Below the pieces are notes generated by a model. It ran no database searches. It had not been told where the DNA came from and was given only the letters and a program-made list of their open reading frames with translations. The position numbers were made by a program, and so were the translations under genes. A stretch of DNA of 64,000 bases from a virus (Duplodnaviria; Caudoviricetes), in the IMG/VR virus record IMGVR_UViG_3300033074_001674, positions 64,001-128,000 of that record, one strand, 5' to 3'. Shown piece by piece: positions 8,301 to 48,893 of this stretch. Positions within the stretch are counted from its first letter, which is position 1. Every line of letters starts with the position of its first letter.

Positions 8301-9086
8301 CTAAGCCCCGCTCCTGCTTAAATGATAAGTTGTACTGCTGCCACAAATTCTGATTGGTATGCCGGCATTTCTATATCTCATCATTAAAGTTATATCGCCG
8401 GTCCCATACTCCATACGCGGAAGCATTGGGCCAAACTTCCTGTACAATTCTTTACTTTGAAGCCATGAGCAACCATCGGCCGAACCATTCATTGGACATC
8501 CGGGGATATCTTTAGGCGCACTCCAATATTTATTAGCCTTTTCGAAATCACAAATATCCGCCACTTCATTTTTGTTGCACCACGCCTGAAATTCATCCTC
8601 CTTAAACGTATCCCACGAATGTCCAAATGGCTCTAATATATGCCTAGATAGAGGCACGTTCTCTTTTGATTCTATGCAATTGTGAAATAATACCAAATCT
8701 TTCGTTGCCCAATGAACATCATCCCAACATTCTAGCATATTCTTGAATGCGCCTTGACCAAAGGCTTGGTCAGAGCCTGCCCTCATATTAAGCGGCGAAC
8801 TTCCTATTGTTTGGCACCTGTCCCAGCAACGATAAAGATTATGAAGGAATGTTTCATAATCATCGCCTTCTACTTCATAATACATCTCTGTTTTAATTTG
8901 ATTATCGGCAGCTATCTTGAGTATTGCATTAGTTATCTCATCTGAGATTTTACTATTCTTATAGATAATCGTATAAAACTCCCACATTGAGCGGTCTAAA
9001 CCGGCATTTCTTAGAACATTATCAACATGCGCGGCATATCTATCTGGATGCTTACCAGCAACTGTACAGTAATCAAATCTAATCAT
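8301..9086 (-). CDS. putative glycosyltransferase (divergent GT-A fold)
   Basis: GSD at the DxD position, late GD motif and terminal TYH; similar to gene 10489..11226 (ES..V.L...I...FG....F....F). Confidence 0.5.
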   Translation of the reverse strand: MIRFDYCTVAGKHPDRYAAHVDNVLRNAGLDRSMWEFYTIIYKNSKISDEITNAILKIAADNQIKTEMYYEVEGDDYETFLHNLYRCWDRCQTIGSSPLNMRAGSDQAFGQGAFKNMLECWDDVHWATKDLVLFHNCIESKENVPLSRHILEPFGHSWDTFKEDEFQAWCNKNEVADICDFEKANKYWSAPKDIPGCPMNGSADGCSWLQSKELYRKFGPMLPRMEYGTGDITLMMRYRNAGIPIRICGSSTTYHLSRSGA

Positions 9087-9253
9087 AACATCACCGCATC
9101 AAGCGATACAACAATCTTATCATCCCTAATAAATAATCTATCTTCTTTCATAGCATCATCATATAATTTAGCAACCCCAAGAGCTTCAATGGCAGGCAGT
9201 TCTACCACCTCTCTAGTTCCATCCGAATAATCAAATATCACATCAATGGTCAT
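9083..9253 (-). CDS. small hypothetical protein
   Basis: Likely start at ATG 9253, overlapping the upstream stop. Confidence 0.5.
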   Translation of the reverse strand: MTIDVIFDYSDGTREVVELPAIEALGVAKLYDDAMKEDRLFIRDDKIVVSLDAVML

Positions 9254-10466: not shown

Positions 10467-10468
10467 TT

Positions 10469-10483
10469 CTCCCTACTAGGGAG
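10469..10483 (-). promoter_or_regulatory. hairpin sequestering the Shine-Dalgarno of gene 9243..10466
   Basis: Perfect inverted repeat CTCCCTA-G-TAGGGAG between the upstream stop and the ATG. Confidence 0.45.
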
Positions 10484-10488
10484 TAGAT

Positions 10489-11226
10489 TCACTTGAGGTC
10501 ATCTGACTCGGCAGATTCTCCTCTTTGGAGATGATATACAATTGAATCGTTGACCATTATATGTTTAAGTCCAAATTTTTCCCACAACTTATAAAAAGTT
10601 ATCCTATCTCCTGGTATGCCATTAGTATTCTTGGTCCATCCCCCAACAGACTTAAGAATATCTGTCTGGAACAAACTAGGCATGTATGCTCCAACGCCAA
10701 TAGAGTAGCTCTCCTCAGAGATGCCAGCAGCAAATTCCTCGAAATCATCTTTTCTGAAAGACTTGATTGTTTGACCAAAATTTTTGCCTATTAGCCCTGG
10801 TAAAGATGGCATTCTTTCGCTCTCAACTAGCCTGCTGGTTGGTATTACTAAATCTAATGGATACTTATTTAAGTTGTCAAGCCATGAATGAGTAAACGCC
10901 ATATCGCTGTTAACAAAGCAGATACGCTCTGTTTTACATTCATTTAAGGCTCTGTTCCATGCGTTATATACATTTTGTATCCACCAATCATTAGGGTTCT
11001 CATTCCTATGTACTACAACACGGATGTTGGCTCGTGCAGCTATCGCATTATTCCACGCATCGCTATTTAAGTAATCAACAACACAATCCCATGGGTCATT
11101 TGCTACAACAAGATATTCTACTTTTTTATCCTCAGCAACACGATTCCATACTCCTAACAATGAATTGAATACAAATTCTAAATATTTAGGATTAGCATAA
11201 ATTAGAGTAGCGACAGTAATTTTCAT
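10489..11226 (-). CDS. glycosyltransferase family 2
   Basis: LVVAND, AWNRAL, CFVNSD, VGGW, GD, VYH motifs. Confidence 0.75.
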   Translation of the reverse strand: MKITVATLIYANPKYLEFVFNSLLGVWNRVAEDKKVEYLVVANDPWDCVVDYLNSDAWNNAIAARANIRVVVHRNENPNDWWIQNVYNAWNRALNECKTERICFVNSDMAFTHSWLDNLNKYPLDLVIPTSRLVESERMPSLPGLIGKNFGQTIKSFRKDDFEEFAAGISEESYSIGVGAYMPSLFQTDILKSVGGWTKNTNGIPGDRITFYKLWEKFGLKHIMVNDSIVYHLQRGESAESDDLK

Positions 11227-11420
11227 AGGTTATCCCAATCTCTACTTACAACTTCAGCATGGGCTTTATCCATATATAGGATAGCTGCTTGAATACACAA
11301 GAAACATCTCTTCCAATATTTTCTTTCCTCTTCAGAATCCACGCAAATAGACATGGAGCGGGCTCTTACAAAAGAATCCAGCAGTTTGTCTTCAAGAACA
11401 GTCGTATATCTCACGCCCAA
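11223..11420 (-). CDS. small hypothetical protein
   Basis: ORF overlapping both neighbours. Confidence 0.5.
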   Translation of the reverse strand: MGVRYTTVLEDKLLDSFVRARSMSICVDSEEERKYWKRCFLCIQAAILYMDKAHAEVVSRDWDNL

Positions 11421-12556
11421 TTACTCCTAATAAATCGATTATGCCAAGGCTCTAAATCTCTATCGAAATCTCTATCAAGTCTTGCCAATAGGTCATCTAT
11501 GATTCTTTCAGATGCCCTGCCATCTCCTAGAGAATAACCCTTCACAGGATATTTGCCCCAAACCTTATCTGCTGCGCTTTCAATATCTAAGTCTTGCATC
11601 GCTACAATGCCGCTCTTAAATGTCTCAGGTCGCTCGGTGCACGGCCTAATCACAACGCAAGGAACGCTTAGTAGTGTGGAAGTCTCTTGATTAGTGCCGG
11701 AATCTGTGAATTCGATTGCCGCACCGGCTTCCAATGAAATAAATTCAAAAAATGGCAGCGGCTCTGTAAAAATAAACACGTCATCAAATCTGTGAAATTG
11801 CCCTTCCATTATTTGTTTAAGTCTTGGCATTACAGGCAAAACACACTTCATATTGTGCATTCTGCACCAATCTCGAACTCTTCCTATTGCGATTGGAGCC
11901 ACATCTCCTCTCATATTGGAATCTCTGTGTAATGTCATGAGGGCATATTTCTTGTATGGCAGGTGATATTTGCCACAGGCCATTAGTGGCTTAATTTTCT
12001 GTCCGTAGTGTTGTATCACATCAACTATTGTATTGCCAACCACGACTATCTTGGTGGGGCAAATACCCTCTTGAACAAGTCTACATTTGTGGTCATTATG
12101 ATATACATAGTAAACAGAGCTTATCCTATCTATGATAATTCTATTTTGCTCCTCTGGCATATCTAAATCATAAGACCTCATTCCTCCCTCTATATGACAA
12201 ATTGGTATTCTCATTTTCCATGGGACTAATGCTCCAATTACCGCATTAGTATCTCCTAAAAACAAACATGCATCCGGCCTGTCTTTAATAAAGACGTCTT
12301 CTAATTGAGAGATAATGCGTGAATGCTGGCTACAATGAGTGTTGCCACCGCAATCCAAAATAATATCAGGTCTTGTAACTCCCATTTCTTCAAAGAAGAT
12401 ATCCTTTAAATTATTATCATAATGCTGATTTGTATAAATGAACTGTAAGTCAATAAACTTATTATTTCTTAATTTATTAAGGATTAAAGAACATCTAACA
12501 ATATCTGGACGAGTACCTATAATCATGGCTAATCTAAACTTTTTAGACATTCCCAT
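11411..12556 (-). CDS. wecB: UDP-N-acetylhexosamine 2-epimerase (WecB/WbjD-like, non-hydrolysing)
   Basis: GTRPD, QHYD, LGDTN, HIEGGMRSYD..MPEEQNR, TLHR, TDSG..QE, TERPE, GDGRASERI. Confidence 0.9.
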   Translation of the reverse strand: MGMSKKFRLAMIIGTRPDIVRCSLILNKLRNNKFIDLQFIYTNQHYDNNLKDIFFEEMGVTRPDIILDCGGNTHCSQHSRIISQLEDVFIKDRPDACLFLGDTNAVIGALVPWKMRIPICHIEGGMRSYDLDMPEEQNRIIIDRISSVYYVYHNDHKCRLVQEGICPTKIVVVGNTIVDVIQHYGQKIKPLMACGKYHLPYKKYALMTLHRDSNMRGDVAPIAIGRVRDWCRMHNMKCVLPVMPRLKQIMEGQFHRFDDVFIFTEPLPFFEFISLEAGAAIEFTDSGTNQETSTLLSVPCVVIRPCTERPETFKSGIVAMQDLDIESAADKVWGKYPVKGYSLGDGRASERIIDDLLARLDRDFDRDLEPWHNRFIRSNWA

Positions 12557-13209
12557 TTTCTCCTTAAGTATAAATCTGTATCACTAATTAGGTAGTATCC
12601 TAATTCTTTAGATTTCTTTGCAATTCTCAAAGAATAACATCCAGATGGCTTAGTTATTTTACATCTAAAATTAGTATTCATCACCTTTGATATGAATAAT
12701 AAAAACATACTTAATGTTTCTTTTGTTCCTAAGATTTCTATTACTGGAACATGCGGAACATTTCTATCTTTTCTTATCTTGCTATAAACATGGACACATC
12801 CATCTCCATCTATATAGCCCCTTAAGAAATGTCTCATATTTTCATCATCTAAATTTGGGGCCACATATGTAAATGTCTTTCTTGGCGTTATATTAAAATT
12901 ATCGAAAAGGTCATTTATCAATCTATTAGAAAAAAGAACAATTTGACAACTCTCTGTAAATTTTACTATCCCTTTTTTAATGGATGAATAACTTTTTTGT
13001 TTTCTAATTTTAATTGGATGATTAGCTTCTATCTGCTTCTTAAATAATTCTAAGTGTTCAATGTCTTTTGTTGAAATCTTAAGTTTAAGAGCCTTCCTAT
13101 CAGACAGGATACATCCATCAGCCGCTATAAAACCTGCCCAATATGAAGAAATTGGATTTACATTTAAAAAAAATAATTCGTTAAATTTATATTTTCTTTT
13201 ATCTTTCAC
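12529..13209 (-). CDS. free-standing LAGLIDADG homing endonuclease
   Basis: YWAGFIAADG and FLRGYIDGDG motifs; AT-rich; overlaps both neighbours. Confidence 0.85.
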   Translation of the reverse strand: MKDKRKYKFNELFFLNVNPISSYWAGFIAADGCILSDRKALKLKISTKDIEHLELFKKQIEANHPIKIRKQKSYSSIKKGIVKFTESCQIVLFSNRLINDLFDNFNITPRKTFTYVAPNLDDENMRHFLRGYIDGDGCVHVYSKIRKDRNVPHVPVIEILGTKETLSMFLLFISKVMNTNFRCKITKPSGCYSLRIAKKSKELGYYLISDTDLYLRRKWECLKSLD

Positions 13210-14030
13210 AGAGTGCTCGCATATGGCGCTACTTCAGATAACATTTTATCTATATCTGATGGCTTCAGCCATTCTTGCCACTTTTTAATCGTTCTTAGAG
13301 TTCTATCACATGCTTCGGCAGCCATTGTAGGATGAACTTCTACATTCAAGTCAAATGCTGTTGCCATTTTAACCAATAAGTTATACTTATCGACATCTGT
13401 TGAATAAAGATTAAAATTATCAAATTGATACAGGTCTTGCTCGATAATCTTATCTATGCACTTTGCAAGCTCTAAGGTGGTAAGCCCGTTCCATTTGTGG
13501 TTCATAAAACCATCGACCTTGTTGCCGGCTTTACCAATGAGCCACTCCATTAATGAGCGCTTATTGCCATGCCATTCTGGTCCAATGATGCTTGTGCGAA
13601 TTACTAGGGAATTTTCTGGCTCTCCCAGACTTTTGCTCTTGCCGTATTCGTCTGTAGCGTTGTGCGGAATATTTTCCGTATACTTGCCGCGTAATCCGTC
13701 ATAAACACAGTCAGTCGTGATATGAATCAACTTTAGCTTTTGCTGTTCGCATTGGTCCGCTAATTTGCGAGGAAAAACCGCATTTGTATAGATGCTTAGT
13801 AGCATTTGGTCAAGACTTTTGAACTTCGGCTTGATTGCGCCAATACAGTTAAGAACATAATCTCCGGCAGACAATCCATATATCGCCACTCCAGCATCAT
13901 TTGGACTGTTGTAGTGCGCTCTAAAATTGTTCCCATTAAACCCTTGTACATCATATTTATCAAGGCTACGGAAGTAGCGCTCTGCCATTCCACCTAGCAT
14001 GCCTCCTGTGCCTATAATTCTGACTTTCAC
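13206..14030 (-). CDS. rmlD: RmlD-like NDP-4-keto-6-deoxysugar reductase
   Basis: GTGGMLG, NCIG, HITTDCVYDG, YGKSK, RTSIIG. Confidence 0.85.
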   Translation of the reverse strand: MKVRIIGTGGMLGGMAERYFRSLDKYDVQGFNGNNFRAHYNSPNDAGVAIYGLSAGDYVLNCIGAIKPKFKSLDQMLLSIYTNAVFPRKLADQCEQQKLKLIHITTDCVYDGLRGKYTENIPHNATDEYGKSKSLGEPENSLVIRTSIIGPEWHGNKRSLMEWLIGKAGNKVDGFMNHKWNGLTTLELAKCIDKIIEQDLYQFDNFNLYSTDVDKYNLLVKMATAFDLNVEVHPTMAAEACDRTLRTIKKWQEWLKPSDIDKMLSEVAPYASTL

Positions 14031-14461
14031 CTAAGCCTCACTATGCTATCATTTGATAATTTAATTCGTCCAGCCCTATTTGAAAATGTCCACCACCCCA
14101 TCACCGTTCCATGAATCATGTGTGGAATGGTCTTTTTAAATTCCTTGCCCCACATCTTGTATTTAATGCCATCTAAAATAGATATAAATGTAGCCTCTAT
14201 ACCTCCTCTTAGTTGGGAATATGAGACAAATTTTAAACAATCAAAAAATATACTATTACTTACATACTTAACTGTTCTTTTATCTCCCCACCAGGTTGAT
14301 GTAACATATGAATTATTTACTTCATCGAAGACAATGTTTAATTCCTTTTTTGGTGGCTTTTGACCAAAAGTTCTTCTAATCGCATGACCTAAATTGGCGA
14401 TATCAGCTTCCGACAATGAAGACCTTGCGATTCTCTCTAGTTCTTGTAGCTTTAAATCCAC
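14027..14461 (-). CDS. hypothetical protein (paralog of 14461..14955)
   Basis: ORF with similarity to the adjacent gene at both ends. Confidence 0.6.
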   Translation of the reverse strand: MDLKLQELERIARSSLSEADIANLGHAIRRTFGQKPPKKELNIVFDEVNNSYVTSTWWGDKRTVKYVSNSIFFDCLKFVSYSQLRGGIEATFISILDGIKYKMWGKEFKKTIPHMIHGTVMGWWTFSNRAGRIKLSNDSIVRLR

Positions 14462-14955
14462 TACTTCTCCATTACTAGCGATTGTACCCCGCCAGATTTT
14501 GTGATTGTAAATTTGCCAATAAGTATGCCGCTTCTAAAATAGCTTAGTAGTTTAAAAATATAAGCAGGAGTCAAAGCGTACATATCACCATCTACTATTG
14601 ATGTAGCGACTGCGAATGGGCTCCCTCCCCTACACCTCTCTAATTTTGGAGCTATCTCCACAGCATCGTAAAACGAAAAATTTTCTACCTCTCTAGCATT
14701 TTGAAATTCAAGACTGTTTCTTTTTAGAAAGGTCTTCTTTCTTCTGTACAGTGAGAATTCCCATTGTAGCTGGTTTAAATTTATTTGTCTTGGCACAAAA
14801 TTACCAACAACACATATACGTGGATATTTCTCGTGAAGAGAAGATGGCATTTGTTTACCATAATTTCTTCTTAGAAGATTAATATAAACTACAGCATCTT
14901 CTCTATTGCCTGAAAGCATAAATTGTCGCTCAGCCAATCGCACCTTTTCATCCAT
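14461..14955 (-). CDS. hypothetical protein (paralog of 14027..14461)
   Basis: ORF with similarity to the adjacent gene at both ends. Confidence 0.6.
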   Translation of the reverse strand: MDEKVRLAERQFMLSGNREDAVVYINLLRRNYGKQMPSSLHEKYPRICVVGNFVPRQINLNQLQWEFSLYRRKKTFLKRNSLEFQNAREVENFSFYDAVEIAPKLERCRGGSPFAVATSIVDGDMYALTPAYIFKLLSYFRSGILIGKFTITKSGGVQSLVMEK

Positions 14956-15383
14956 TATCTATTCCTGACTCCCCAAATTCCACTTGTAATATCCCACGGC
15001 AGCCGACCGTCATCCTGCTTGGCCTCTTCAAATGTTAATGTTGAAAGAACCAACAACTTTGTGTTATCCGTTAAACTTTCTGCACCATTCGCCCATCCTG
15101 CAGGAACTTTAAATAGACGCGGCCTCCTCGCACTTAAGATACCGGTAATACACTCATCAACATTAGAAAGATTAAGTCCGCCACACTTGACAGCGCCAAC
15201 AACACAATGTAGGTATGTATCTCCTCTAAGGTGTCCATGCCATGCGCGAACTTGACCACGGGAAAAATTTTCAACCATGTAGAGCCGTCTGATTCCAAAA
15301 TCCCCGATTCTATCAAGGATGCAATGTACGCTTCCCCTATCATCTTCATGTAGCGCCAATTCTATAAATTGAGGTTTATCCAC
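14955..15383 (-). CDS. RmlC/FdtA-like cupin, NDP-sugar epimerase/isomerase
   Basis: HEDDRG, VRAWHGH, VPAGWANG cupin motifs. Confidence 0.85.
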   Translation of the reverse strand: MDKPQFIELALHEDDRGSVHCILDRIGDFGIRRLYMVENFSRGQVRAWHGHLRGDTYLHCVVGAVKCGGLNLSNVDECITGILSARRPRLFKVPAGWANGAESLTDNTKLLVLSTLTFEEAKQDDGRLPWDITSGIWGVRNR

Positions 15384-16362
15384 CTGCCATCTCCTTGGCT
15401 ATTGTAGCATTATGAAATTTACTTAACCATGGATTTTTAATCCTGCCGCTCTGCAACATATCTCTCATTGTTCGAATGCCTTCTCGCAATGTTCTATTGG
15501 CGAACAGACCAAGGGATTTCGCCTTACTATTATCTACGCGATAATTTCTCAAATCCTCAAACTTACTATCTATAAGGGCAACTTCTGAGCCAGGTATTTC
15601 TTCAAGAATAATATCCGCAACCTCTTTGATTGTATAGTTCCCATGGGAAATTAAAACTACGCCTTTAAAATCTGAGAATACAGACTTTGTCATTAATTGC
15701 GCCACATCCAGCACATGTATAAGTGGTCTCCACTGTTCTCCGCCGAACACTGTTATTGGCTGTGCCTGACATGCCTTAAATGTTAATATATTAACTACAA
15801 GGTCGGCTCTTATTCTACCATAAGAAGTTGATGAGCCAAATAGAGTCCCTAACCTAAAAATTGCCCAATTAGTTAGTGATGATGATTTAATGGCATCTTC
15901 TGCGTTTAATTTTGTGCCAGCGTATAAACTTAGAGGCCTTACAGGACTAAGCTCATTTACGGTATCTGGAGATTCCCCGTATACAGATGCAGTTGACGCA
16001 AAAACTAGCCGCACATCCGGCTTACGCTTTTCAAGAAAGGTTACTAGTTTTTTTACAAAATTCTCGTTTGTTTCAACGGTTAGCTCAGGAAGCGCTTGAC
16101 AAGCGCCATCTCCAACTATTGCAGCTAGATGCACTATCGCACAAATATTATCAATTTCCTTGTCAAGCATGTTAAAAAAAGCATCACTATTTATATCAAT
16201 AAGACGAAAATCTATATTTGGTCTTAGATATACATCTTGATATAAAAGATTATCAATTGCTATCAGCTCATTTTTTTCACAAATGTCATTAAGAAATGCA
16301 CAAACGGCGTCACCGATGTACCCAGCCGCTCCAGTAACTAATATTCTTCTACCCTTCAACAT
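15376..16362 (-). CDS. NAD-dependent epimerase/dehydratase (extended SDR)
   Basis: TGAAGYIG, HLAA, FASTASVYG, YAGTK (YxxxK), WRPLIHV.D. Confidence 0.9.
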   Translation of the reverse strand: MLKGRRILVTGAAGYIGDAVCAFLNDICEKNELIAIDNLLYQDVYLRPNIDFRLIDINSDAFFNMLDKEIDNICAIVHLAAIVGDGACQALPELTVETNENFVKKLVTFLEKRKPDVRLVFASTASVYGESPDTVNELSPVRPLSLYAGTKLNAEDAIKSSSLTNWAIFRLGTLFGSSTSYGRIRADLVVNILTFKACQAQPITVFGGEQWRPLIHVLDVAQLMTKSVFSDFKGVVLISHGNYTIKEVADIILEEIPGSEVALIDSKFEDLRNYRVDNSKAKSLGLFANRTLREGIRTMRDMLQSGRIKNPWLSKFHNATIAKEMAGG

Positions 16363-16541
16363 GGTTTGCCTCTTAAAAAATACATGGCTCGCCTCTCATA
16401 ATATAATTTAGATTGATGATATATATTCTCGTCAGCTTTTATTATTTTTACAGGCCCATCGCAATAGCAAATTTTTTCTGATAATGGCATTATTTCTTTA
16501 CATGAACCGCATTGTTTAACGCGAAGAGCCATTAAGCACAC
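16356..16541 (-). CDS. small zinc-ribbon protein
   Basis: CxxC...CxC motif. Confidence 0.45.
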   Translation of the reverse strand: MCLMALRVKQCGSCKEIMPLSEKICYCDGPVKIIKADENIYHQSKLYYERRAMYFLRGKPC

Positions 16542-17313
16542 AGTAAATCAGCATTATAATCCCTAACATAAAGACGCTTGCGCTAAAATAAAACATTAAT
16601 GATTTTGCGGCAGCGACTTCTTCTCTCTTAGAGAGAAGATTAAGAACACCATTTTTCTCTAGCTCTTTCTTAATATCTCCCATAGAGATATATTCAGACC
16701 ATGATTGCGAAATAACCCCATCATTAACACGCGCTTCAACGACCATGCCAACTATCTCGCAATTAGCGTTAAATACTGCTGAACCACTAGCTCCAACCTC
16801 TATTGGCATAGAAGCTCTTTGTAGATTCTTTCTTTCCCCATATGACTGTAGCCCGAAATAAATATGTGGCTTATCACTTGCCAAAGGATGTCCTATAGAA
16901 TAAAGAGGGGCTCCAGCTCGCTCATTCTCAAATGACAGGCTTGAATGTATCCCTTTATAGGGCGTGTGGATAATTGCAATATCCATACTAGTGACGGATG
17001 CTGTCGTTGGCCATAACACTTGTGATGGATAGAAATAATCATTTGCGTACACCAACACGTATCGTTCAGATTCTGAAATTAGACCATCCTCATTAAGGTC
17101 TACAACGTGCTTGGCAGTCAATACATTTCCGCTCGGCAATATTATTCCAGACCCAGAGCTAATCGGCGTGTCTATTTTACACGTATTGCTTGTGGCCCTT
17201 GCAAAATCAAATATCTTATTTGAAGATAAATGTTTGTCGGCCAACATAGCCAAAATTAGGCATACTATCAAAGTTGAAAACACTGTAATTAGAAAAATCT
17301 TAACTGATTTCAT
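16516..17313 (-). CDS. membrane-anchored trypsin-like serine protease
   Basis: GSG, LTAKH (His), MDIAII (Asp), GASGS (Ser); hydrophobic N- and C-terminal segments. Confidence 0.85.
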   Translation of the reverse strand: MKSVKIFLITVFSTLIVCLILAMLADKHLSSNKIFDFARATSNTCKIDTPISSGSGIILPSGNVLTAKHVVDLNEDGLISESERYVLVYANDYFYPSQVLWPTTASVTSMDIAIIHTPYKGIHSSLSFENERAGAPLYSIGHPLASDKPHIYFGLQSYGERKNLQRASMPIEVGASGSAVFNANCEIVGMVVEARVNDGVISQSWSEYISMGDIKKELEKNGVLNLLSKREEVAAAKSLMFYFSASVFMLGIIMLIYCVLNGSSR

Positions 17314-18112: not shown

Positions 18113-18114
18113 TA

Positions 18115-19747: not shown

Positions 19748-19938
19748 GATATAAAAAGATATGCTCCCTCAAGTGCTCCTGAATTTTCGGTACAATCGCA
19801 ATCTTTACGCTGCTTTGCACAAGATAAACATCTGCAATACCAACACAGATGAGATGTAACTGAAAAACCAAAACGTCCAGAGCCACAATGGTTTCTTATT
19901 ATAATCAAGCCTGTATCTCGACATTGTTGGCACTTCAT
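19744..19938 (-). CDS. small Cys-rich protein
   Basis: CQQCRDTG...CWYC.C..C. Confidence 0.5.
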   Translation of the reverse strand: MKCQQCRDTGLIIIRNHCGSGRFGFSVTSHLCWYCRCLSCAKQRKDCDCTENSGALEGAYLFIS

Positions 19939-20519
19939 GGAGCGCCTCTAGGAAAATCACTTGTAATTGTACTTTCCATTAGACGTTTGACGTTCTTAGT
20001 ATCAAAGCCTCTGCCAGCTTTTCTTTTAATTAGCTCATAAACAACCCCCATGGTCGGATGTGGATGCGTAAAACATTGGACTAAATCATCTGATTCTATT
20101 GGTTCATCTGTAGTAAATGTGGCATATTTATTCTTTTTCCATAATTCCATAGTGGCCGCCACATCGTTGACTGCGTATGCTAAATGATGGATGTTGTTTC
20201 CGTGCTTTTCAACCCACTTATCTACAAGTGACCCAGGCGTTCCCTGTGAAACAAATATATCCGGAGCCATATGGTACTGTAAATGGTTATACTCGTGCCT
20301 GGTAATTGATGGAGCATCCATTATGCCGCAGCGCTCAATAGGAACAAGTGAGTAGCATTGTGCAAATTCCTTCTTTTCATCATCAAAGAAGATTAGAAAT
20401 GATTCATCTATTTTATAGCCAAACGCATCGCATAAAAATTTGGCCGCCGCATCTCTATCTTTAACGCGATATGCAATGTGGTCTAATCTCATGGGAATAT
20501 TGCTCTCTGCTCTTGCCAA
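19935..20519 (-). CDS. VOC/glyoxalase superfamily metalloenzyme (HPPD/methylmalonyl-CoA epimerase-like)
   Basis: LDHIAYRV, IHHLAYAVNDV, YELIKR: His/His/Glu metal triad. Confidence 0.8.
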   Translation of the reverse strand: MARAESNIPMRLDHIAYRVKDRDAAAKFLCDAFGYKIDESFLIFFDDEKKEFAQCYSLVPIERCGIMDAPSITRHEYNHLQYHMAPDIFVSQGTPGSLVDKWVEKHGNNIHHLAYAVNDVAATMELWKKNKYATFTTDEPIESDDLVQCFTHPHPTMGVVYELIKRKAGRGFDTKNVKRLMESTITSDFPRGAP

Positions 20520-21286
20520 GATTGTGCAGTTTTAACTAACCAAGGGACAGCTTGATAGCTATATCTTTCCATATATTTACGAGTATAGCTTGGATGCCAA
20601 TCTACTTCTGGAAATTTTCTAAATGATGGCATAGACCAACTAGTGTCGTCCAACCTTCCCCATTTTGTCTGAATCCATGGTCCGTTATTTTTGCCATCCC
20701 ATGGCTTTGCCTTATATGAATATTTCAGATGATTAACGAAATGTCCAACTTCAATATCTCCATCTCTTTTAATAAAATCATGAGACCTGTCTATATAATC
20801 TTTTAAGCCAGCCTCACTAATTCTGAGCTGGCTGTCAACGTCCTCGAATCCGCCTCCAGTAAACCTTTCGTCAAACCATCCATGCTCAAGAATAAATTGT
20901 TTAGACAAACACATCGCACCATAATGGAACAAATGTATCATCAGATACTTCTGACTTGCAATCATATCTTCTAGATATTCTAACCAATTAGGATTAAAAG
21001 TAATATCATCATTACATATTAAAACCCATTCTGTTGGTGCGGTCATAATGCACCAATTCCAAAGTTCTGCCAAACCAGACTTATCTGGAAGCCAAACACT
21101 TCTTAAATGCAACGAAGCATTCTCATCACACAATTTCATTGAATCATCATAGGAATCTGGGCTATCATGCAAAACAGTAACAACCGGCGACTTGCTTTGA
21201 GCAGTAGACATAATGCTTTTTAAAAAAGCTTCAAGGCATTTAGGCCTATGTCTTGACGGCACAGCTATACTAATCTTATCGTGCAT
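20489..21286 (-). CDS. glycosyltransferase family 2
   Basis: SIAVPSRHR, WN, ICNDD, GWFDERFTGGGFED. Confidence 0.85.
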   Translation of the reverse strand: MHDKISIAVPSRHRPKCLEAFLKSIMSTAQSKSPVVTVLHDSPDSYDDSMKLCDENASLHLRSVWLPDKSGLAELWNWCIMTAPTEWVLICNDDITFNPNWLEYLEDMIASQKYLMIHLFHYGAMCLSKQFILEHGWFDERFTGGGFEDVDSQLRISEAGLKDYIDRSHDFIKRDGDIEVGHFVNHLKYSYKAKPWDGKNNGPWIQTKWGRLDDTSWSMPSFRKFPEVDWHPSYTRKYMERYSYQAVPWLVKTAQSWQEQRAIFP

Positions 21287-22061
21287 CTTCCACCAGAATT
21301 GGATTGTACTGTTTCACAATCTTAATCTCTCCATATTTCCCAGAATTCAGGAGTTGCTTAGCCTTTGTTTTGCACGCATCAGATGCCGCCTTTTCTCTGT
21401 CCTTATTAGAACCAGTAATCTGGTTGCCATGAACGCGAAAAGCCGCCAATATTGCCCTGACTAGCCCGAAATGGGTAAACTGCGCGGCGCGCACCGCAAA
21501 ATCAAAGTCCTCACATATTTCGTTCCAATATAAACCAGTTTTTCTCCACAAGTTAGCTGTGTACATAAACGACATCCCAAGGTCGTATCCATTAACAAGG
21601 TCTTCTCTCGTCTGTGGCTTCTGATGAATAACATCGTGTATCCGACGATTGTTTTCATCTATATAGGTAAAATCGCTGTAGACAAATTCTACTGGAGCCC
21701 CTTGTTGTTCGCATTGATGTAGAGCGTTTGCAAGTTCAGCCACGAAGTTTGGAAAATAAATATTATCAGCACTACACCAAGTTATATATTTGCCTCTAGC
21801 CAGAGAATGGCCTGTATTTAAAGCGCTGCCTGTGCCACCATTTTGCTTTGAAATGTACCGCAATCTTCTATCAAAGAAGAAATTTCTAACAACAGAATCT
21901 GTATTATCTGTAGAACCATCATTAACTACTATAATCTCTATAGATGGAAATGTTTGCTTTGTAAGACTATCTAGTGTCGCAGCTATAAACCTCTGCGCAT
22001 TATATGCTGGAACAACAATTGAAACTAACGGCGCTTCATCTTTAACTATTAAGTGTTTCAT
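21276..22061 (-). CDS. glycosyltransferase family 2
   Basis: VSIVVPAYN, NDGSTDNT, ALNTG, SADN, EDFDF. Confidence 0.92.
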   Translation of the reverse strand: MKHLIVKDEAPLVSIVVPAYNAQRFIAATLDSLTKQTFPSIEIIVVNDGSTDNTDSVVRNFFFDRRLRYISKQNGGTGSALNTGHSLARGKYITWCSADNIYFPNFVAELANALHQCEQQGAPVEFVYSDFTYIDENNRRIHDVIHQKPQTREDLVNGYDLGMSFMYTANLWRKTGLYWNEICEDFDFAVRAAQFTHFGLVRAILAAFRVHGNQITGSNKDREKAASDACKTKAKQLLNSGKYGEIKIVKQYNPILVEDAR

Positions 22062-22399
22062 GTGTTTGCCTGACTTCTACGTCTATTCTCGCTATCTATA
22101 TATTCAAATAATCTAGAAACATGATTATCGCATATTGGAACTAGGTCATTCCACCCGTGTTTACATTCCTGTGACGTTTGACAATCATTACAGTAAATAT
22201 CAGCTCGACTACCAGCGGGGATAGTCTGCGAAGGCCACTCGCAATTATTATTGTATACGCACTTATATTGAGAATGAATTACAGGCCAACATCTTTCACA
22301 AATTGGCAACTTGTTACTATTTTCTTCATCTGGGAAGAAATTAAGCCAGCGGACTGCAAATATCATTGGATACTGACACCAGCGACATTTAATAGACAT
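22058..22399 (-). CDS. Cys-rich hypothetical protein
   Basis: Repeated CxxC / CxxH modules. Confidence 0.55.
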   Translation of the reverse strand: MSIKCRWCQYPMIFAVRWLNFFPDEENSNKLPICERCWPVIHSQYKCVYNNNCEWPSQTIPAGSRADIYCNDCQTSQECKHGWNDLVPICDNHVSRLFEYIDSENRRRSQANT

Positions 22400-22776
22400 T
22401 ATCTCCTCACATTATGTGATGAAACTAGACTATCTAGTAAAATTAGTCTTTTGCGTTTTTTAGCCAACCATTTTAATGCTATCGACAGATGCGCTTCACA
22501 AGTTGAGACTTCAGGTAAATAATATGCAGCATATGCCCATGCACAATAATCACATGTGTATCTATAGCCTTTACAACCATTAAAACAATGAGCAAAAACC
22601 ATATCAAACCAATAAATCATTGCAGGATATTTACAATTTCCATCTCCAAAATAACAAGTATTTCTATTTACTTTTTCTCTATAATGTTCATGACATAGAT
22701 ATGCTGGGCTATAGCCAATCTTGCTACAGTCAACTAAATATCCTTCTTTTTTACAATCATAAAATTGGCATTCCAT
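22399..22776 (-). CDS. Cys-rich hypothetical protein
   Basis: Repeated CxxC / CxxH modules. Confidence 0.55.
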   Translation of the reverse strand: MECQFYDCKKEGYLVDCSKIGYSPAYLCHEHYREKVNRNTCYFGDGNCKYPAMIYWFDMVFAHCFNGCKGYRYTCDYCAWAYAAYYLPEVSTCEAHLSIALKWLAKKRKRLILLDSLVSSHNVRR

Positions 22777-23378
22777 TATTGCCTCTCAAATATAAAAACA
22801 GCTCTAGTCCTATGATTGGTAGAACGCTGAATCCCTATTCCTCCAACCTGCTTAAACCATTCCTTTTTATATTGAGGTAATACTTCGTCTAACCACACAA
22901 GAAATCCGCCACGGTTAAGTAATAGATAGCATTGTTCCATTACCTTTTTCCTATTTATCATTGGATATCCATATTTTTCAGCATCTTTAGCAGAATATGG
23001 ACAGTCTGCCAAAATCAAATCAAATTTTCTATCAATAAGCACGCTGGCATTTTGTGCATCTCCGCAAAAATCTGGCTTTAATTTTGGATTAATATCAAAT
23101 GTTAATCCTGGAAAATCTTCCATCCAGCTTTTATTGGATTCAAAACCGGGACTTAATGAACCACTAAACAAATGTAATGTTTGTTCTTTACCAAACTCTG
23201 GAAACATTGTTCTAATTCTTTTAAGATACCCATAAGGATAAGCGCCATACCAATTTGGTCCTGTATAACAGGCTCCAATACTCCAATATCCTACTATCCA
23301 ATTATTGCTAAATTGAATTTTAGGCCATTTTGGAAATGCCAAATTGTACAAATCTACCCTATCTTCAAGGCTTAACAT
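22776..23378 (-). CDS. small putative DNA amino-methyltransferase
   Basis: GAYP, HLFSGS (SAM-binding), DIN...PD...DA, DLILADCPY (DPPY-like). Confidence 0.7.
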   Translation of the reverse strand: MLSLEDRVDLYNLAFPKWPKIQFSNNWIVGYWSIGACYTGPNWYGAYPYGYLKRIRTMFPEFGKEQTLHLFSGSLSPGFESNKSWMEDFPGLTFDINPKLKPDFCGDAQNASVLIDRKFDLILADCPYSAKDAEKYGYPMINRKKVMEQCYLLLNRGGFLVWLDEVLPQYKKEWFKQVGGIGIQRSTNHRTRAVFIFERQ

Positions 23379-23379
23379 A

Positions 23380-24396
23380 TTAAGCTGGATTGTAGACCGG
23401 CGCCATTCTGGCTGATGCCCAGGGCCAATTTAGCATCCATTGAGGAATTGTAGGCAAATTAGGATGCAATGAGTAATACGGAGATTTCTTCCAGTGTTTA
23501 ATTTTTGCCGCTACATCCTCTTTTGTGTAAAAATCACATATATCCTTATATGCTGGATGTTCTTTTAAAGAAGATGGATGATTCCCGTCGAATTCGAGAA
23601 CGGTATTTAAATCCTCTGTAAAGCCCACAAACTCTTTAAGCTTCTCATCAAAGGCATCTGCGGCAGACTTTCCTTCGCCAGCCGGGAATCTCTTAAGTTC
23701 GCTTTCGTAAAATTCTCTCTTCATCTCGTGAAATTTTACTCCCTTTGCATGGCCATAATGATATATGAAAATAGGAGTAACATATCGAAACTGTTGAATT
23801 TGCGGATGAAAATACGTGCAGACTCCATCAGCCTGGGTAGCAACTGGATGTGTATGATATCTAAGTCCTGGGCGCCACCTCAGGATTCTCTGATGAGAGC
23901 AGACCCACTCTGGTCCAAAATCTCGCACATGCTTAAAATCTCTATAAAAGTGCAAAAATGTGACCATTAATTCGCTTGCCAACGGCCTCTTGTAAATATA
24001 CTGACGAAGCTTCTCTATATCTCCGTCCATATAAAATTCATCGCAGTCTACAATAAATATCCAATCGCCATCACGAGATGAATCAAGAAAGACCTGCTTT
24101 TGTTCCTCAAGACTCTTGAACGGCCTATCTAATTGAATAAATTCTATTTTGTTTGCGGGGTCTGGAAAGTTCTTAATAAGTTCAATTGTCTTATCAGTTG
24201 AGTGTCCATCATGTGTCGAGCCAGGCCTGCCTTCTACTGCTCCCTCTACAATGCGGATTACATCCCACTCATCGTAGCAATTACGCAAATTATACTCTAT
24301 CCAGCCTTCTTCGTTGTGCGCTGCAACGCACTTGACTAGACGGATTTTATCTTTTGGATAATTGGTCTCAGAAAGTATGTAATCTATTTGTCTCAT
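23380..24396 (-). CDS. glycosyltransferase family 2
   Basis: HNEE, HSTDKT, WIFIVDCDEF, IYHYGH. Confidence 0.8.
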   Translation of the reverse strand: MRQIDYILSETNYPKDKIRLVKCVAAHNEEGWIEYNLRNCYDEWDVIRIVEGAVEGRPGSTHDGHSTDKTIELIKNFPDPANKIEFIQLDRPFKSLEEQKQVFLDSSRDGDWIFIVDCDEFYMDGDIEKLRQYIYKRPLASELMVTFLHFYRDFKHVRDFGPEWVCSHQRILRWRPGLRYHTHPVATQADGVCTYFHPQIQQFRYVTPIFIYHYGHAKGVKFHEMKREFYESELKRFPAGEGKSAADAFDEKLKEFVGFTEDLNTVLEFDGNHPSSLKEHPAYKDICDFYTKEDVAAKIKHWKKSPYYSLHPNLPTIPQWMLNWPWASARMAPVYNPA

Positions 24397-25481
24397 TGAT
24401 TTATTTCTTCCAATACCTTAATAATCTTTGACGCCCCATTATCCCAAGAGAATTTTTTGGCTGTCTCTACCCCGCTCTTATTGAAGAGAAGCTTTCCGCT
24501 CTGCTTCTCACTGTGTATCTTGCGCATCTCATCTACCAGTTGGTCTAGGTTAAATGTTGACCATGCACCCTGTCCATAGAACCACTTGCCATCCTTCGCG
24601 ACTTCCATTCCAGTAACATCTAGTAATCTGGCATTTCTATCATGCATATATTCTGTGTGGCCAGAATAATTAGTTGCTATTATATGTGCTCCGCAGGCCA
24701 TCATCTCTAGTGGCTCAAGATTAAATCCTTCTGCTTTTGCAGGAAAAACACCAACATCAATTTGTGCGAATATCTTTCTTATCTCAGCATGATTATCAAC
24801 TCTATCAAAAAACTTTACCTTATTGCCCATGGTAGATAGAGCATACTTCTTCCGCCACTCGAAATTTTCATGGCCGATAAATGGGTTATCGTTCATCATC
24901 CACAACTCAACATCATCTGTTGGTGAAAATGCGGCGTTAAATGCTGCGCATAGCTCTTCGTGGCCTTTTCTTACTTCCCACTTACCAACATTCATGAATA
25001 TTGTAGAATTTCTATTCCAATATTGTCTTTGATTGTGCCCGTCCGGCTCGTAGAAAAACTTATCATTATCAACGCCTAGTGGAACAACAAATGTCGGAAC
25101 CTGAATATTATTAGATTCAATAACTCGCTTCGCCCATTCAGAGCAAACAAATATATAATCTAAAGAATTTAGATGATGCTTTTCCTTATCTGAAAACTTA
25201 TCAAGTTCGAATATTGGAAATCCAATCCTAATATTGCTTGGATACATATCTAGTTCAAATTGATGCCAAATTCTAATTGAAGGGGCCTTATGATTAAAGG
25301 TCTCCTTTGACTTTAAGGCAAAATCTAAAATCCGCGTGCTTTCATCTGTCTTTGGCCACGATACATTGCCTATTGGGAATAATGCAACTTTATGTCCAGC
25401 ACCAATTAGAGATTTAAGTAAATTATATGAAGCTACTCCATATCCCAACTGACCTATTGGTCCAACCCAATTAATGTCCAT
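24393..25481 (-). CDS. glycosyltransferase family 4 (GT-B)
   Basis: LGYG, GKWEVRKG, EGFNLEPLEMMACG; likely start at ATG 25481. Confidence 0.9.
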   Translation of the reverse strand: MDINWVGPIGQLGYGVASYNLLKSLIGAGHKVALFPIGNVSWPKTDESTRILDFALKSKETFNHKAPSIRIWHQFELDMYPSNIRIGFPIFELDKFSDKEKHHLNSLDYIFVCSEWAKRVIESNNIQVPTFVVPLGVDNDKFFYEPDGHNQRQYWNRNSTIFMNVGKWEVRKGHEELCAAFNAAFSPTDDVELWMMNDNPFIGHENFEWRKKYALSTMGNKVKFFDRVDNHAEIRKIFAQIDVGVFPAKAEGFNLEPLEMMACGAHIIATNYSGHTEYMHDRNARLLDVTGMEVAKDGKWFYGQGAWSTFNLDQLVDEMRKIHSEKQSGKLLFNKSGVETAKKFSWDNGASKIIKVLEEINQ

Positions 25482-26646
25482 TTCTGACCTTCCAAGCACA
25501 ATAATGAGATAAAATTGTTTCCTTCATTAAATTCCCTATATAATCATAGTTATATTTAGAAGGAGTAGATATGGCGGTATTTATCTTTCGTCTCCATGGA
25601 GAATCTTCGCCGCCAACCAATTTACTAATTGACCATTCGTTGTAAGCAGACCTAAGAGCCCCTCTTAGTGAGAGGATATCTGGTTCTGCCCAATTGTCTG
25701 CGGCCGTATACATAAAAGGATGTGGGTGTGGCATCGAATGACATGGTGTCATCGTGTAATCAACTAGCCATCCGGCATCGTTTGTTAAGAACTCTTTTGT
25801 CCCGCCACAATTAAGTCCAATTGCCGGCAGTCCATATCCAAGAGCATCAAAATGTGTAATTGAGAAGCCTTCGCCGCGGCTAGGGAGTGCATACAAATCG
25901 CATGTCTTGTATAGCTTTGCTATAGAATCTTCTCCTGTAACACCATGTATTAGCTTAATCTTAGGATAAGCTCCACTTTGTAATCTAAGCGCAGATTTAA
26001 TCCCGTTGATTTGATTAATCAGAGAGTTTCTCTCATTATCTCCATCATTAGGCCCAAAATAAACCTTTAAGACCAATACGACATTATCATTTGCTGTAAA
26101 TTCATTTAGATATGAAAATAGCAATGAGTCAACACCCTTTTTCTTGGATATCTGACAAATAGATAATATCTTGAAGTGCTCTTCAAAACCAGGCATATCA
26201 TATGGCTGAACAGGCTTTTTGTATTGTTCCTCGCTAAATGTGTGCGGCACCTTAACAACTGGAGGCTTGACACCAGCGACTGTGCACGCGATAACATTAT
26301 CGTCGCATGGGACCATAATGAGGTCCATCTGATTTAATTGTCTAACCCACTCTTGAGGGACTCTATCTGTCTCCCATGCAAAATAACATGCATTAAAACA
26401 GCCGTCTTTTCTGCCCATCTCATTTGGGGTTGTATGAGCAAGAATAATATCTACATTAGATGTATCCTTGTCTGCAAGGTGCTTCTCTCTATCTGATAAG
26501 ATAGCGCTACCGCCATCATATCTTAATGGCCTAGTTACTATATCACATCCTACAGAATCTAGCGCTCTAACATAATTCCTTGCGGCAGTGGCATATCCTG
26601 AGAAATCTAGCAATGGGGCTATATACAATATCTTTGGATTTTTCAT
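25471..26646 (-). CDS. glycosyltransferase family 4 (GT-B)
   Basis: SGYATAAR, WET, KKG, PSRGEGFSITHFDALGYG. Confidence 0.9.
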   Translation of the reverse strand: MKNPKILYIAPLLDFSGYATAARNYVRALDSVGCDIVTRPLRYDGGSAILSDREKHLADKDTSNVDIILAHTTPNEMGRKDGCFNACYFAWETDRVPQEWVRQLNQMDLIMVPCDDNVIACTVAGVKPPVVKVPHTFSEEQYKKPVQPYDMPGFEEHFKILSICQISKKKGVDSLLFSYLNEFTANDNVVLVLKVYFGPNDGDNERNSLINQINGIKSALRLQSGAYPKIKLIHGVTGEDSIAKLYKTCDLYALPSRGEGFSITHFDALGYGLPAIGLNCGGTKEFLTNDAGWLVDYTMTPCHSMPHPHPFMYTAADNWAEPDILSLRGALRSAYNEWSISKLVGGEDSPWRRKINTAISTPSKYNYDYIGNLMKETILSHYCAWKVRNGH

Positions 26647-28277
26647 ATAACAGGTCCAACTAACAAATTGCTTGAAATTCTAATTGGATTATTCTGATGA
26701 CCCATCATTTGCATGGCGCGTGAGAATCTTATAGATTCAAACCTGTTATGGGCATCTATTTCTCCCTTGAAATAATTCTCAACATCTTCCTTTGACATTC
26801 CTTTGGCCAGTGATGAAGTCCAGTGTTGGAATCCTGCCGGGTCTGGCTCTCGCATCAGAAGAGCTCTATAGCATGTCATTACAAATTGGTCATTTGGAAG
26901 ATTCTTATCTATTGTATAAGGAGGCATAAGCTTGAAATCAGGCAATTTTTCCCATGAGACTTTTCTGTCTAGGATTGCAATATTGTCGATTACATCTTCA
27001 AATGTCTTTCCGACACCTTGCCAGGTATGCATTTTCTCTGCACACGCTCTTGCCCTTTTAGCTAATTCTAATCTTTCTTTCTTCTCGTAAATCATGCGCT
27101 TCATAAGGCCTGCTAGACAATCAACATCAGAGAATGTTCTAACGGCCATAGTTTCTGCTTCTGTGTATCTTCTGTCTATATCTATTGGAAGTGTCCCGCC
27201 ATTCTCAACATGGTCCTCTAGCGCGGAATAATTAGAGCACAAAACTGGCAGTCCACACGCCTTAGCTTCGACAACCGGAACTCCCCACCCCTCACAAATC
27301 GCGACCTGACAGTATACATCCATTAAGTTATAAATTTCTGCCAGCTCACTTTCACTCACTGAGTTATGTGTATTTGGCATATGTGCAGCATGTTGCCCGC
27401 AGAAAATACATTGTCCCATCCCAGCCTGATTACAGGGCAGGAACCATGAAAAAAATACCTTTGTACAGGCATCACATTTGTATGTGAATATTACATGTCT
27501 ATTAAGGGAATTTCTTCTAAGAAGCTCTGGTATATCCCAACCAACGTCTGGATATGAGGTATGACATAGTAGGACGCTATGCTCTACTTCTTTAGAGCCA
27601 GCATATCTTTTCCTTAATAGTGAGAAGGCTTCAAACAGGTCTGAAAATAGCTTTCGCTTTTGATTGCGCATCACTGTTCCAAAAATAAACAGTGACTTAT
27701 TGAGTCCCCAATCATCTCTTAGTTTGATTTTATCCATTGGTCTAAATGTATCTAGGTCAACTCCTGGACTTGTGACTGCTGCAACCTTTAGTCCTTGCGC
27801 ATTTAAGGTTCTTCTTCCAAATCTACTATAAGTAGTGAGTATATCAGCCTTGCTAAAAATCTCATCTACCCATTCCTGCTTTTGGGGAGCAGAATCTACA
27901 GTAGGAGTTAGCAACACCTTATAATTGCCTCTAAATCTAGATTTTACTAGATGAGGCATCATCCATGGGTCTAAAAACGACATTACTATGTCTGGCTGAA
28001 AATCTGCTACCACAGCATCAAATTTATATGCGCCAAATTGATTTATAGGATTAGAATTATAAATTCTTCCCTCTTCGTCATTTAGAGGGAGGACGCCGTA
28101 GAACCGCCAGGGAAGTGCGGCGGCCTGCGGCGCGTCTTGTCTACCATAATTACCCATTTCAGCTATCTCATATTTGCCAGTGGCATAGAGATACTTAATG
28201 ACTTCCCGGTTAAATTTAGCAAAGCCAGTCGCCAACCAACTGGCCTCGCCACAAAATAGTAGACGCTTCTTGCCCAT
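26643..28277 (-). CDS. glycosyltransferase family 4 (GT-B) with zinc-ribbon insertion and DUF4214-like C-terminus
   Basis: TGFA, RNQKRK, EGWGVPVVEAKACG; CDAC...CIFC insert; YRALLMREPDPAGFQHW. Confidence 0.88.
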   Translation of the reverse strand: MGKKRLLFCGEASWLATGFAKFNREVIKYLYATGKYEIAEMGNYGRQDAPQAAALPWRFYGVLPLNDEEGRIYNSNPINQFGAYKFDAVVADFQPDIVMSFLDPWMMPHLVKSRFRGNYKVLLTPTVDSAPQKQEWVDEIFSKADILTTYSRFGRRTLNAQGLKVAAVTSPGVDLDTFRPMDKIKLRDDWGLNKSLFIFGTVMRNQKRKLFSDLFEAFSLLRKRYAGSKEVEHSVLLCHTSYPDVGWDIPELLRRNSLNRHVIFTYKCDACTKVFFSWFLPCNQAGMGQCIFCGQHAAHMPNTHNSVSESELAEIYNLMDVYCQVAICEGWGVPVVEAKACGLPVLCSNYSALEDHVENGGTLPIDIDRRYTEAETMAVRTFSDVDCLAGLMKRMIYEKKERLELAKRARACAEKMHTWQGVGKTFEDVIDNIAILDRKVSWEKLPDFKLMPPYTIDKNLPNDQFVMTCYRALLMREPDPAGFQHWTSSLAKGMSKEDVENYFKGEIDAHNRFESIRFSRAMQMMGHQNNPIRISSNLLVGPVI

Positions 28278-48885: not shown

Positions 48886-48893
48886 ATCTTAAC

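Follow-up and report, generated by a model that had tools for sequence, protein, structure and literature searches.

A glycosyltransferase island behind the replication genes of an uncultured tailed-phage lineage

Several groups of viruses glycosylate their own components, and their machineries provide the closest comparison for the system described here, an island of glycosyltransferase (GT) genes at positions 8301-28277 of a 64,000-base stretch of tailed-phage DNA (hereafter the window), which corresponds to bases 64001-128000 of a single IMG/VR virus record of 165,893 bases (IMGVR_UViG_3300033074_001674). Like this phage, chloroviruses and mimiviruses encode soluble GTs of both the GT-A and the GT-B fold together with enzymes modifying nucleoside diphosphate (NDP) sugars, and no lipid-carrier or export genes; chlorovirus glycans consist of a conserved core with variable decoration, and a chlorovirus transferase, NY-2A B736L, is the best structural match of the core GT-B found here. 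Yet these are giant viruses of eukaryotes whose capsid or fibril glycans have been shown experimentally, whereas the present system is known from its genes alone, and its core GT-B differs from B736L by an additional zinc ribbon and a DUF4214 tail. Glycosylated mycobacteriophages are, as here, tailed phages encoding their own soluble transferases, though only a few of them, and they are not known to have a sugar-nucleotide pathway; the transferases of actinophages show only weak similarity to those of the island (22-24% identity). In the work of Freeman et al. (2023), as summarised in PMC12619734, a Che8-type mycobacteriophage glycosylates its capsid and tail-tube subunits with its own transferases.

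Phages that glycosylate their DNA offer another comparison, be it with the alpha- and beta-GTs of T4, with a methyltransferase plus TET yielding 5-hydroxymethylcytosine, or with the ThyA homologue of RB69 and DLP3 for arabosyl-5-hydroxycytosine. They too employ GT4-like GT-Bs, sometimes several in a row, and phage-encoded sugar-nucleotide synthesis, but they depend on a hydroxylase or hydroxymethylase acting on the base, an enzyme missing here and nearly so in relatives, and their glycans do not exceed three sugars. Large inventories of sugar genes are known as well: cyanophage P-SSM2 has 24 of them (PMC1079782). P-SSM2 is, however, a T4-like myovirus, and its clusters are strain-specific accessory genes, absent from P-SSM4, rather than a lineage core anchored to the replisome. 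Moraphages, large uncultured aquatic phages, carry four GT orthogroups in their core genome, with unknown target (PMC12619734). They encode a family B polymerase (PolB) and T4-like contractile-tail genes, whereas the lineage studied here has a split DNA polymerase III alpha subunit (PolIII-alpha); membership in the moraphages, which replicate with PolB, is ruled out. As chloroviruses, mimiviruses, mycobacteriophages and cyanophages all have glycosylation clusters of their own, the set of genes is in itself not without precedent; for what a first-pass annotation of the window called giant-virus-scale glycobiology in a tailed phage, P-SSM2 is the precedent at the level of gene inventory, sugar islands of such a size having been known in tailed phages ever since. 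What appears to be new is a virus-specific GT-B family with zinc ribbon and DUF4214 tail, the constancy with which this family follows the replisome genes throughout a large lineage without cultured members, and the very large variable extension that follows it in this phage.

A virus-specific pair of transferases beside ssb

The most informative fact about the island concerns the two GT-B genes next to ssb, the gene for the single-stranded DNA-binding protein (SSB): they belong to the core of the lineage and are specific to viruses, while the other parts of the island vary. A scan of IMG/VR with the 544-aa GT-B matched 92 viral contigs, of which 80 were fetched, many of them 100-173 kb long; every one of the 80 loci has a homologue, with 31-52% identity. 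The neighbouring 391-aa GT-B has tblastn matches in 73 related loci, and the protein cluster to which it belongs (cluster 5) spans 69. The order of genes, as established by tblastn and by all-against-all clustering of the open reading frames (ORFs) of the relatives, is fixed: DnaB, primase, (dNMP kinase), a PD-(D/E)XK nuclease, the N-terminal part of PolIII-alpha, an RNase T-like exonuclease, the C-terminal part of PolIII-alpha and SSB are followed by the 544-aa GT-B, (an FkbM methyltransferase), the 391-aa GT-B and a further GT-B, and then by more transferase-like genes and genes of unknown function. Going upstream from the core GT-B by at most four genes, one meets PolIII-alpha in 72 of 75 loci and a gene of the ssb cluster in 65 of the 75; of the 55 loci whose sequence extends far enough downstream, 53 have at least four recognisable transferase genes. 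Among the genes of the island, wide sharing is limited to the GT-B pair and one GT2; for the other GT-As, the orphan ORFs and the majority of the sugar genes the relatives offer few counterparts or none, and no close relatives of the variable GT-A genes were found in IMG/VR. Judged by this comparison, the island can be described as a conserved anchor with a variable extension, which is unusually long in this phage. The lineage itself is one of uncultured, PolIII-alpha-encoding phages with complete genomes of ~140-175 kb, and the two core transferases are its mark; the island would be an enlarged, variable version of a glycosylation system common to this lineage.

The AlphaFold2 model of the 544-aa core enzyme has a GT-B fold (pLDDT, the predicted local distance difference test, of 90), whose C-terminal lobe is interrupted by a zinc ribbon (C268, C271, C291, C294); a DUF4214 module of three helices forms the C-terminus. 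Its best structural match in the PDB, the chlorovirus protein B736L (3oy2; E 3.8e-20, template modelling (TM) score 0.81 by target), is only 16% identical in sequence; next come GlgM, MshA, PimB', BshA, sucrose-phosphate synthase and a methylmannose-polysaccharide mannosyltransferase, and ManT and OtsA are also among the fold matches. The closest predicted viral structures are transferases of phages and giant viruses. In metagenomes, the family has at least 1900 members of ~545-575 aa, on contigs of up to ~180 kb, and the closest homologues, with 69-87% identity, are situated on contigs of up to 177 kb. Two of the homologues (P0001, 87% identical, and P0071, 51%) are interrupted at the identical site by an intein with a LAGLIDADG endonuclease. 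This site corresponds to residues 98-100 of the 544-aa protein, beside the invariant D103 and W105, and falls in a D-I-x-D-x-W motif that is conserved in the acceptor-side domain. Inteins prefer sites that are conserved and cannot be dispensed with, and an insertion of this kind is typical of essential phage genes.

No cellular orthologue of the core GT-B emerged when the genomes of 185,579 species of bacteria and archaea were scanned with a profile; the best cellular match, 27% identical, is on a 7-kb contig of a metagenome-assembled genome. A GDP-mannose 4,6-dehydratase (Gmd), encoded together with a second short-chain dehydrogenase/reductase (SDR) just upstream of the window, shares no more than 57% identity with any bacterial protein. 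Given the missing cellular orthologue and the distant Gmd, these genes are not recent imports from the lipopolysaccharide (LPS) locus of a host. The other two GT-Bs are paralogues of each other and belong to one protein cluster. An EX7E motif is found in two of the three GT-Bs (at residue 257 in the 368-aa protein) and not in the 391-aa protein.

The surroundings of the island are those of a phage. Large terminase, portal and major head protein are encoded on the same contig just beyond the window, and the window itself encodes very large tail-region proteins, UvsX, DnaB, primase, an intein-bearing ThyX, a PD-(D/E)XK nuclease, PolIII-alpha as two ORFs and SSB. The gene for the major capsid protein occupies genome positions 131117-132109, and those for tail proteins lie at window positions 42663-59426. 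All genes of the island lie tightly packed on the minus strand, as does every substantial ORF of the window, whose GC content is even (35-42%). The island starts directly downstream of ssb, and its other border is formed by a PacI-like HNH endonuclease followed by an N6/N4 DNA methylase. As phage replication and structural genes flank it, the island is not a host LPS locus, and together with the virus-only core GT-B and the distance of Gmd from bacterial homologues this rules out a host LPS or capsule locus, in agreement with the earlier assignment to a phage. The split of PolIII-alpha, whose halves are ~1.1 kb apart with three small ORFs in the gap (Table 1), is also kept in relatives, usually with an RNase T/DnaQ-like exonuclease between the halves (72-80 loci). 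A promoter and terminator scan of the island returned chance-level hits only and was uninformative.

Table 1. Coordinates (window positions) and family assignments of the island genes and of selected neighbouring genes
Feature	Position	Strand	Length (aa)	Assignment
Short UDP-glucose/GDP-mannose-dehydrogenase-family protein	2043..3947	-		Pfam and NCBIfam; NAD-binding and central domains only
Divergent GT-A-fold protein	8301-9086	-	261	No Pfam match; Atlas structure model GT2-like, TM 0.63-0.69 by query
Divergent GT-A-fold protein	9243-10466	-	407	No Pfam match; Atlas structure model, GT-A at residues ~135-407
Divergent GT-A-fold protein	10489-11226	-	245	PF00535 below threshold (16.8 vs 23.3 bits)
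Non-hydrolysing UDP-GlcNAc 2-epimerase (WecB type)	11411..12556	-	381	PF02350, 240.8 bits
Free-standing LAGLIDADG homing endonuclease inside the sugar operon	12529..13209	-		PF14528 and PF00961
RmlD-like reductase	13206-14030	-		PF04321
FdtA/RmlC-like cupin	14955-15383	-		PF05523
SDR dehydratase/epimerase	15376-16362	-		PF01370/PF16363
Trypsin-like serine peptidase	16516..17313	-	265	PF13365
Three consecutive GT-As (GT2)	17300-18112, 18115-18843, 18809-19747	-	270/242/312	PF13704 and PF00535
VOC (vicinal oxygen chelate)/glyoxalase-fold protein, like methylmalonyl-CoA epimerase	19935..20519	-	194	PF13669 and PF00903; TIGR03081 partial
GT-A (GT2)	20489..21286	-	265	PF00535, 32.1 bits
GT-A (GT2)	21276..22061	-	261	PF00535, 103.5 bits, top GT2 score of the island
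Three orphan ORFs	22058..23378	-	200, 125, 113	No match in Pfam, PDB or relatives
GT-A (GT2)	23380..24396	-	338	PF00535, 24.6 bits; DCD at residue 117
Third GT-B	24393..25499	-	368	Glyco_trans_1_4 and Glycos_transf_1
Second core GT-B	25471..26646	-	391	Glycos_transf_1
Core GT-B (GT4-like)	26643..28277	-	544	Glycos_transf_1 and DUF4214; first gene after ssb
ssb, upstream anchor of the island	28277..28711	-		PF00436; PolIII-alpha beyond ssb
Split PolIII-alpha	29221-30828 and 31936-33819	-		N-part and finger/HhH/OB part, separate ORFs

The variable extension and its neighbours

Altogether the island encodes nine GT-As and three GT-Bs, as the first-pass annotation had proposed, which is borne out by Pfam and, for two of the GT-As, by Atlas structure models. 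Six of the GT-A genes have GT2-type Pfam domains at or above the curated threshold. The highest-scoring of them (21276-22061) falls in cluster 16, common to 26 related loci, and that at 23380-24396 has a 40% identical homologue in one relative (locus L034). A canonical DxD motif in the expected position is present in four of the nine, among them the three consecutive genes at 17300-19747 (DAD at 109, DAD at 89 and DGD at 94, respectively). The three divergent GT-A-fold proteins (8301-9086, 9243-10466 and 10489-11226) show no DxD motif in its canonical form; the assignment is weaker for the 407-aa one among them, as its model has a pLDDT of 0.58 and matches GT2 families with TM scores of 0.42-0.47 by query and 0.55-0.78 by target.

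The predicted SDR, RmlC-like cupin, RmlD-like reductase and WecB-like 2-epimerase, all in the same orientation, were likewise recovered by Pfam and NCBIfam. The SDR, the cupin and the reductase, with two basic orphan paralogues among them, form a deoxy-sugar module (13206..16362). The NCBIfam equivalog scores of the sugar genes are all far below cut-off except for that of the WecB-type enzyme, which just passes it (TIGR00236, 210.2 versus 210.15 bits). The idea that the sugar pathway is self-contained did not survive: a search for sugar-1-phosphate nucleotidyltransferases (NTP_transferase, PF00483), positive in all 14 genomes of a control, found none in the contig, and the dehydrogenase-like gene has no sugar-nucleotide domain. 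The phage must therefore draw on UDP-, GDP- or dTDP-sugars of the host. The gene at 2043-3947, taken before for a UDP-glucose dehydrogenase, encodes a short form of this family, the C-terminal UDP-sugar domain (PF03720) being absent from all six frames of the contig, and is split by an intein with a LAGLIDADG endonuclease. A short form of this kind, 279-290 aa long and free of the intein, also occurs in relatives. The activity of this protein is, on its domain content, uncertain.

The remaining genes of the island are more heterogeneous. The serine peptidase is the sole predicted membrane protein of the island, with hydrophobic Kyte-Doolittle segments at residues 6-24 and 242-260, and is probably membrane-anchored; that it takes part in glycosylation is doubtful. 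The VOC-fold protein has homologues of 40-42% identity in three relatives (loci L041, L042 and L068). In the 200-aa orphan (22776-23378) the motif FSGS is followed by DLILADCPY, resembling motifs I and IV (DPPY/NPPY) of amino-methyltransferases with Cys replacing Pro, so that this protein looks like a methyltransferase, a lead based on motifs only. Four small, probably zinc-binding orphans (22058-22776, 19744-19938, 16356-16541) are very rich in cysteines, with CxxC pairs (10 of 113, 11 of 125, 9 of 64 and 6 of 61 residues); neither the related loci nor Pfam contain homologues. Between the cupin and the reductase lie two adjacent, faintly paralogous basic proteins of 144 and 164 aa (14027-14461 and 14461-14955, isoelectric point (pI) ~9.8) with no detectable homologue. 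The possibility that orphans of the island are diverged copies of the genes conserved in the clusters of relatives was rejected, hhalign probabilities being below 6%. The ORF at 7574-8296, considered as a further transferase, turned out to be the PacI-like HNH endonuclease that delimits the island.

The genome is heavily colonised by selfish elements. Inteins or endonuclease inserts are found in three metabolic genes, namely the dehydrogenase-family gene at 2043-3947 (intein and LAGLIDADG), ThyX at 34873-36693 (LAGLIDADG-like) and a ribonucleotide reductase of 1172 aa (L003:14531-18049; endonuclease-like). Free-standing homing endonucleases are of the LAGLIDADG (12529-13209), PacI-like HNH (7574-8296) and GIY-YIG (L002:16976-17779) types.

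What receives the sugars

Our best guess for the target of the system, which we put forward tentatively and which the first-pass annotation had favoured as well, is a virion protein. From the gene content we infer an order of enzyme action, the sugars made and the acceptor as follows. Two or three virus-specific soluble GT-Bs would lay down, in the cytoplasm, a conserved inner glycan on a macromolecule made by the phage, and the changeable set of GT-As would then extend it. The rare sugars for the GT-As would be made by phage enzymes from NDP-sugars of the host: a 6-deoxyhexose by SDR, cupin and reductase, N-acetylmannosamine (ManNAc) by the WecB-type epimerase, and a GDP-6-deoxyhexose by Gmd and the second SDR upstream of the window. 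The likeliest acceptor would be one or more virion proteins, giving the particle a coat with conserved core and variable periphery, comparable to the coats of chloroviruses, mimiviruses and glycosylated mycobacteriophages. The pattern of conserved core and variable periphery suits a surface glycan under diversifying selection. In favour of this reading, moreover, the enzymes are soluble, specific to viruses and conserved across a deep lineage that appears virulent, the contig has neither a multi-pass membrane protein nor Bac_transf, the nearest structural relative of the core GT-B is a giant-virus enzyme, and base hydroxylases are absent here and nearly so in relatives.

Against a virion glycan speak several observations. 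Neither Ser/Thr-rich acceptor tracts nor obvious tails were found in the structural proteins. The only hint of an acceptor is a twofold excess of Ser-Gly in a 1349-aa tail-region protein (48894-52943), which contains 32 Ser-Gly and 16 Gly-Ser dipeptides, ~15.5 being expected from its composition (genome-wide, 292 Ser-Gly versus 234 Gly-Ser); Ser-Gly would be a candidate glycosylation sequon. The cluster is placed with the replication genes and not with the virion genes, which equally suits DNA as the target. The fold matches of the core GT-B span enzymes acting on small molecules, lipids and polysaccharides, and the fold therefore names no acceptor. The three GT-As without DxD may be inactive or unusual, and the contig is incomplete (CheckV completeness ~74%). 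Finally, the lineage has no cultured relative in INPHARED: among 50,697 phage records searched by megablast and tblastn, identities did not exceed 22-36%.

Alternatively, the island might remodel the envelope of the host. Lipid-carrier or export genes are not among the genes of the contig, and the transferases are soluble: in a simple Kyte-Doolittle hydropathy scan, none of the twelve has a membrane segment and no protein in the 166 kb of the contig has more than three, which leaves no multi-pass membrane protein and no Gtr-type component, and the initiating transferase Bac_transf is absent from the contig as well. The first-pass annotation, which had noted the missing membrane segments and lipid-carrier set, had deduced a soluble, lipid-independent assembly line from them. 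The solubility stands; the lipid independence does not follow. Most GT2 and GT4 enzymes of O-antigen and capsule synthesis are peripheral proteins without membrane segments that act on undecaprenyl pyrophosphate (Und-PP) intermediates of the host, and since such enzymes are usual in O-antigen synthesis, missing membrane segments do not prove independence from a lipid carrier. The soluble GTs might hence dock at the inner face of the host membrane and extend undecaprenyl-linked intermediates of the host, whose own initiating transferase, flippase or ABC exporter, and ligase would complete the glycan; the altered surface of the infected cell could exclude superinfecting phages or stop the progeny from sticking to debris. 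The hydropathy result fits this scenario, WecB, Gmd and a 6-deoxyhexose module are typical of O-antigen and capsule loci, and the same reading was proposed for the 24 sugar genes of P-SSM2 (PMC1079782). Yet the core transferases are specific to viruses and stay at a fixed position across a deep lineage, unlike auxiliary genes derived from hosts, and the contig is devoid of Gtr-type or other membrane components. Moreover, no tyrosine integrase was found in the contig or in nine near-complete relatives; for this reason the lineage appears to be virulent, which argues against lysogenic serotype conversion. Envelope remodelling is in our view rather unlikely.

The same enzymes could instead hypermodify DNA, the replisome-adjacent GT-Bs glycosylating phage DNA after replication and the variable GTs lending variety to its glycan as a protection from restriction and type IV defence systems. 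GT genes follow directly after PolIII-alpha and ssb in 72 of 75 related loci, a T4 gp1-like dNMP kinase is kept in the replication module of 51 relatives, and the core GT-B has a zinc ribbon inserted. In addition, the known arabinosyl- and glucosyltransferases for phage DNA are GT4-like GT-Bs with their best fold matches to BshA, MshA, PimA and sucrose-phosphate synthase (PMC13326640), and such enzymes recur among the fold matches of the core GT-B. However, the contig lacks all routes known to lead to a base that accepts sugars: the ThyA family (PF00303), TET/JBP (PF12851) and C5-methylases (PF00145) are absent from its 166 kb, which extends to the whole contig what had been noted before for hydroxymethylases and TET/JBP in the window. 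ThyA is also absent from 15 of 16 long relatives, including eight of the nine with at least 90% completeness, and TET/JBP from all 16, in a search without positive control. With base hydroxylases absent here and nearly absent in near-complete relatives, a DNA target is weakened. A 2-oxoglutarate (2OG)-Fe(II) oxygenase of the AlkB family does lie in the interval separating the genes of the two GDP-sugar enzymes, ~2.4-3.0 kb ahead of the window (L002:15042-15587, genome 61042-61587). As its closest relatives are ALKBH8 and ALKBH6, which modify tRNA or nucleic acids, it was ruled out as a TET-like base hydroxylase, and it is the sole 2OG oxygenase. The known DNA glycans are mono- to trisaccharides (10.1101/2023.12.21.572611; PMC13326640), far below what twelve GTs could produce, and the transferases are mostly mildly acidic (pI 5-6.4), which is weak evidence. 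Altogether we consider DNA glycosylation quite unlikely. Still less does a soluble cytoplasmic product recommend itself, be it a glycosylated small molecule or a free oligosaccharide or polysaccharide, by which the phage would alter the physiology of the infected host; a methylated polysaccharide of the storage type, or the glycoside of a thiol or a compatible solute, would be examples. In its favour, the best PDB match by sequence, 7qsg, is a methylmannose-polysaccharide mannosyltransferase according to PMC13326640, small-molecule GT4s abound among the fold matches (MshA, BshA, GlgM, sucrose-phosphate synthase, OtsA), and FkbM methyltransferases are found between the core GT-B genes of relatives. 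But twelve different GTs imply a complex heteroglycan and not a homopolymer or a single glycoside, nothing points to a primer or acceptor, and a phage precedent is lacking, making such a product highly improbable.

Virion-protein glycosylation is thus the reading we retain for the target. A more comprehensive proposal, speculative and on balance doubtful, is that an entire, widespread lineage of virulent phages might depend on a virus-specific core consisting of the GT-B with zinc ribbon and DUF4214 and of partner GT-Bs, encoded with the replisome. On this core each phage might build a virion heteroglycan of its own, assembled in the cytoplasm without lipid carrier and arranged like LPS core plus O-antigen, as a kind of serotype coat whose periphery changes fast; or else the core might glycosylate DNA by a chemistry independent of ThyA-type and TET-type enzymes.

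If virion proteins are indeed the acceptors, a common environmental lineage of tailed phages would bear complex, strain-variable glycan coats. These would matter for adsorption, for adherence to mucus or particles, for the way in which grazers or immune systems recognise the phage and for competition between phages, and the island would represent a compact, lipid-free glycan assembly line of use for glyco-engineering. If DNA is the acceptor, a new way of making sugar-modified bases would come to light. In both cases the conserved core GT-B, with its intein-targeted motif, zinc ribbon and DUF4214 tail, provides a marker gene for the lineage.

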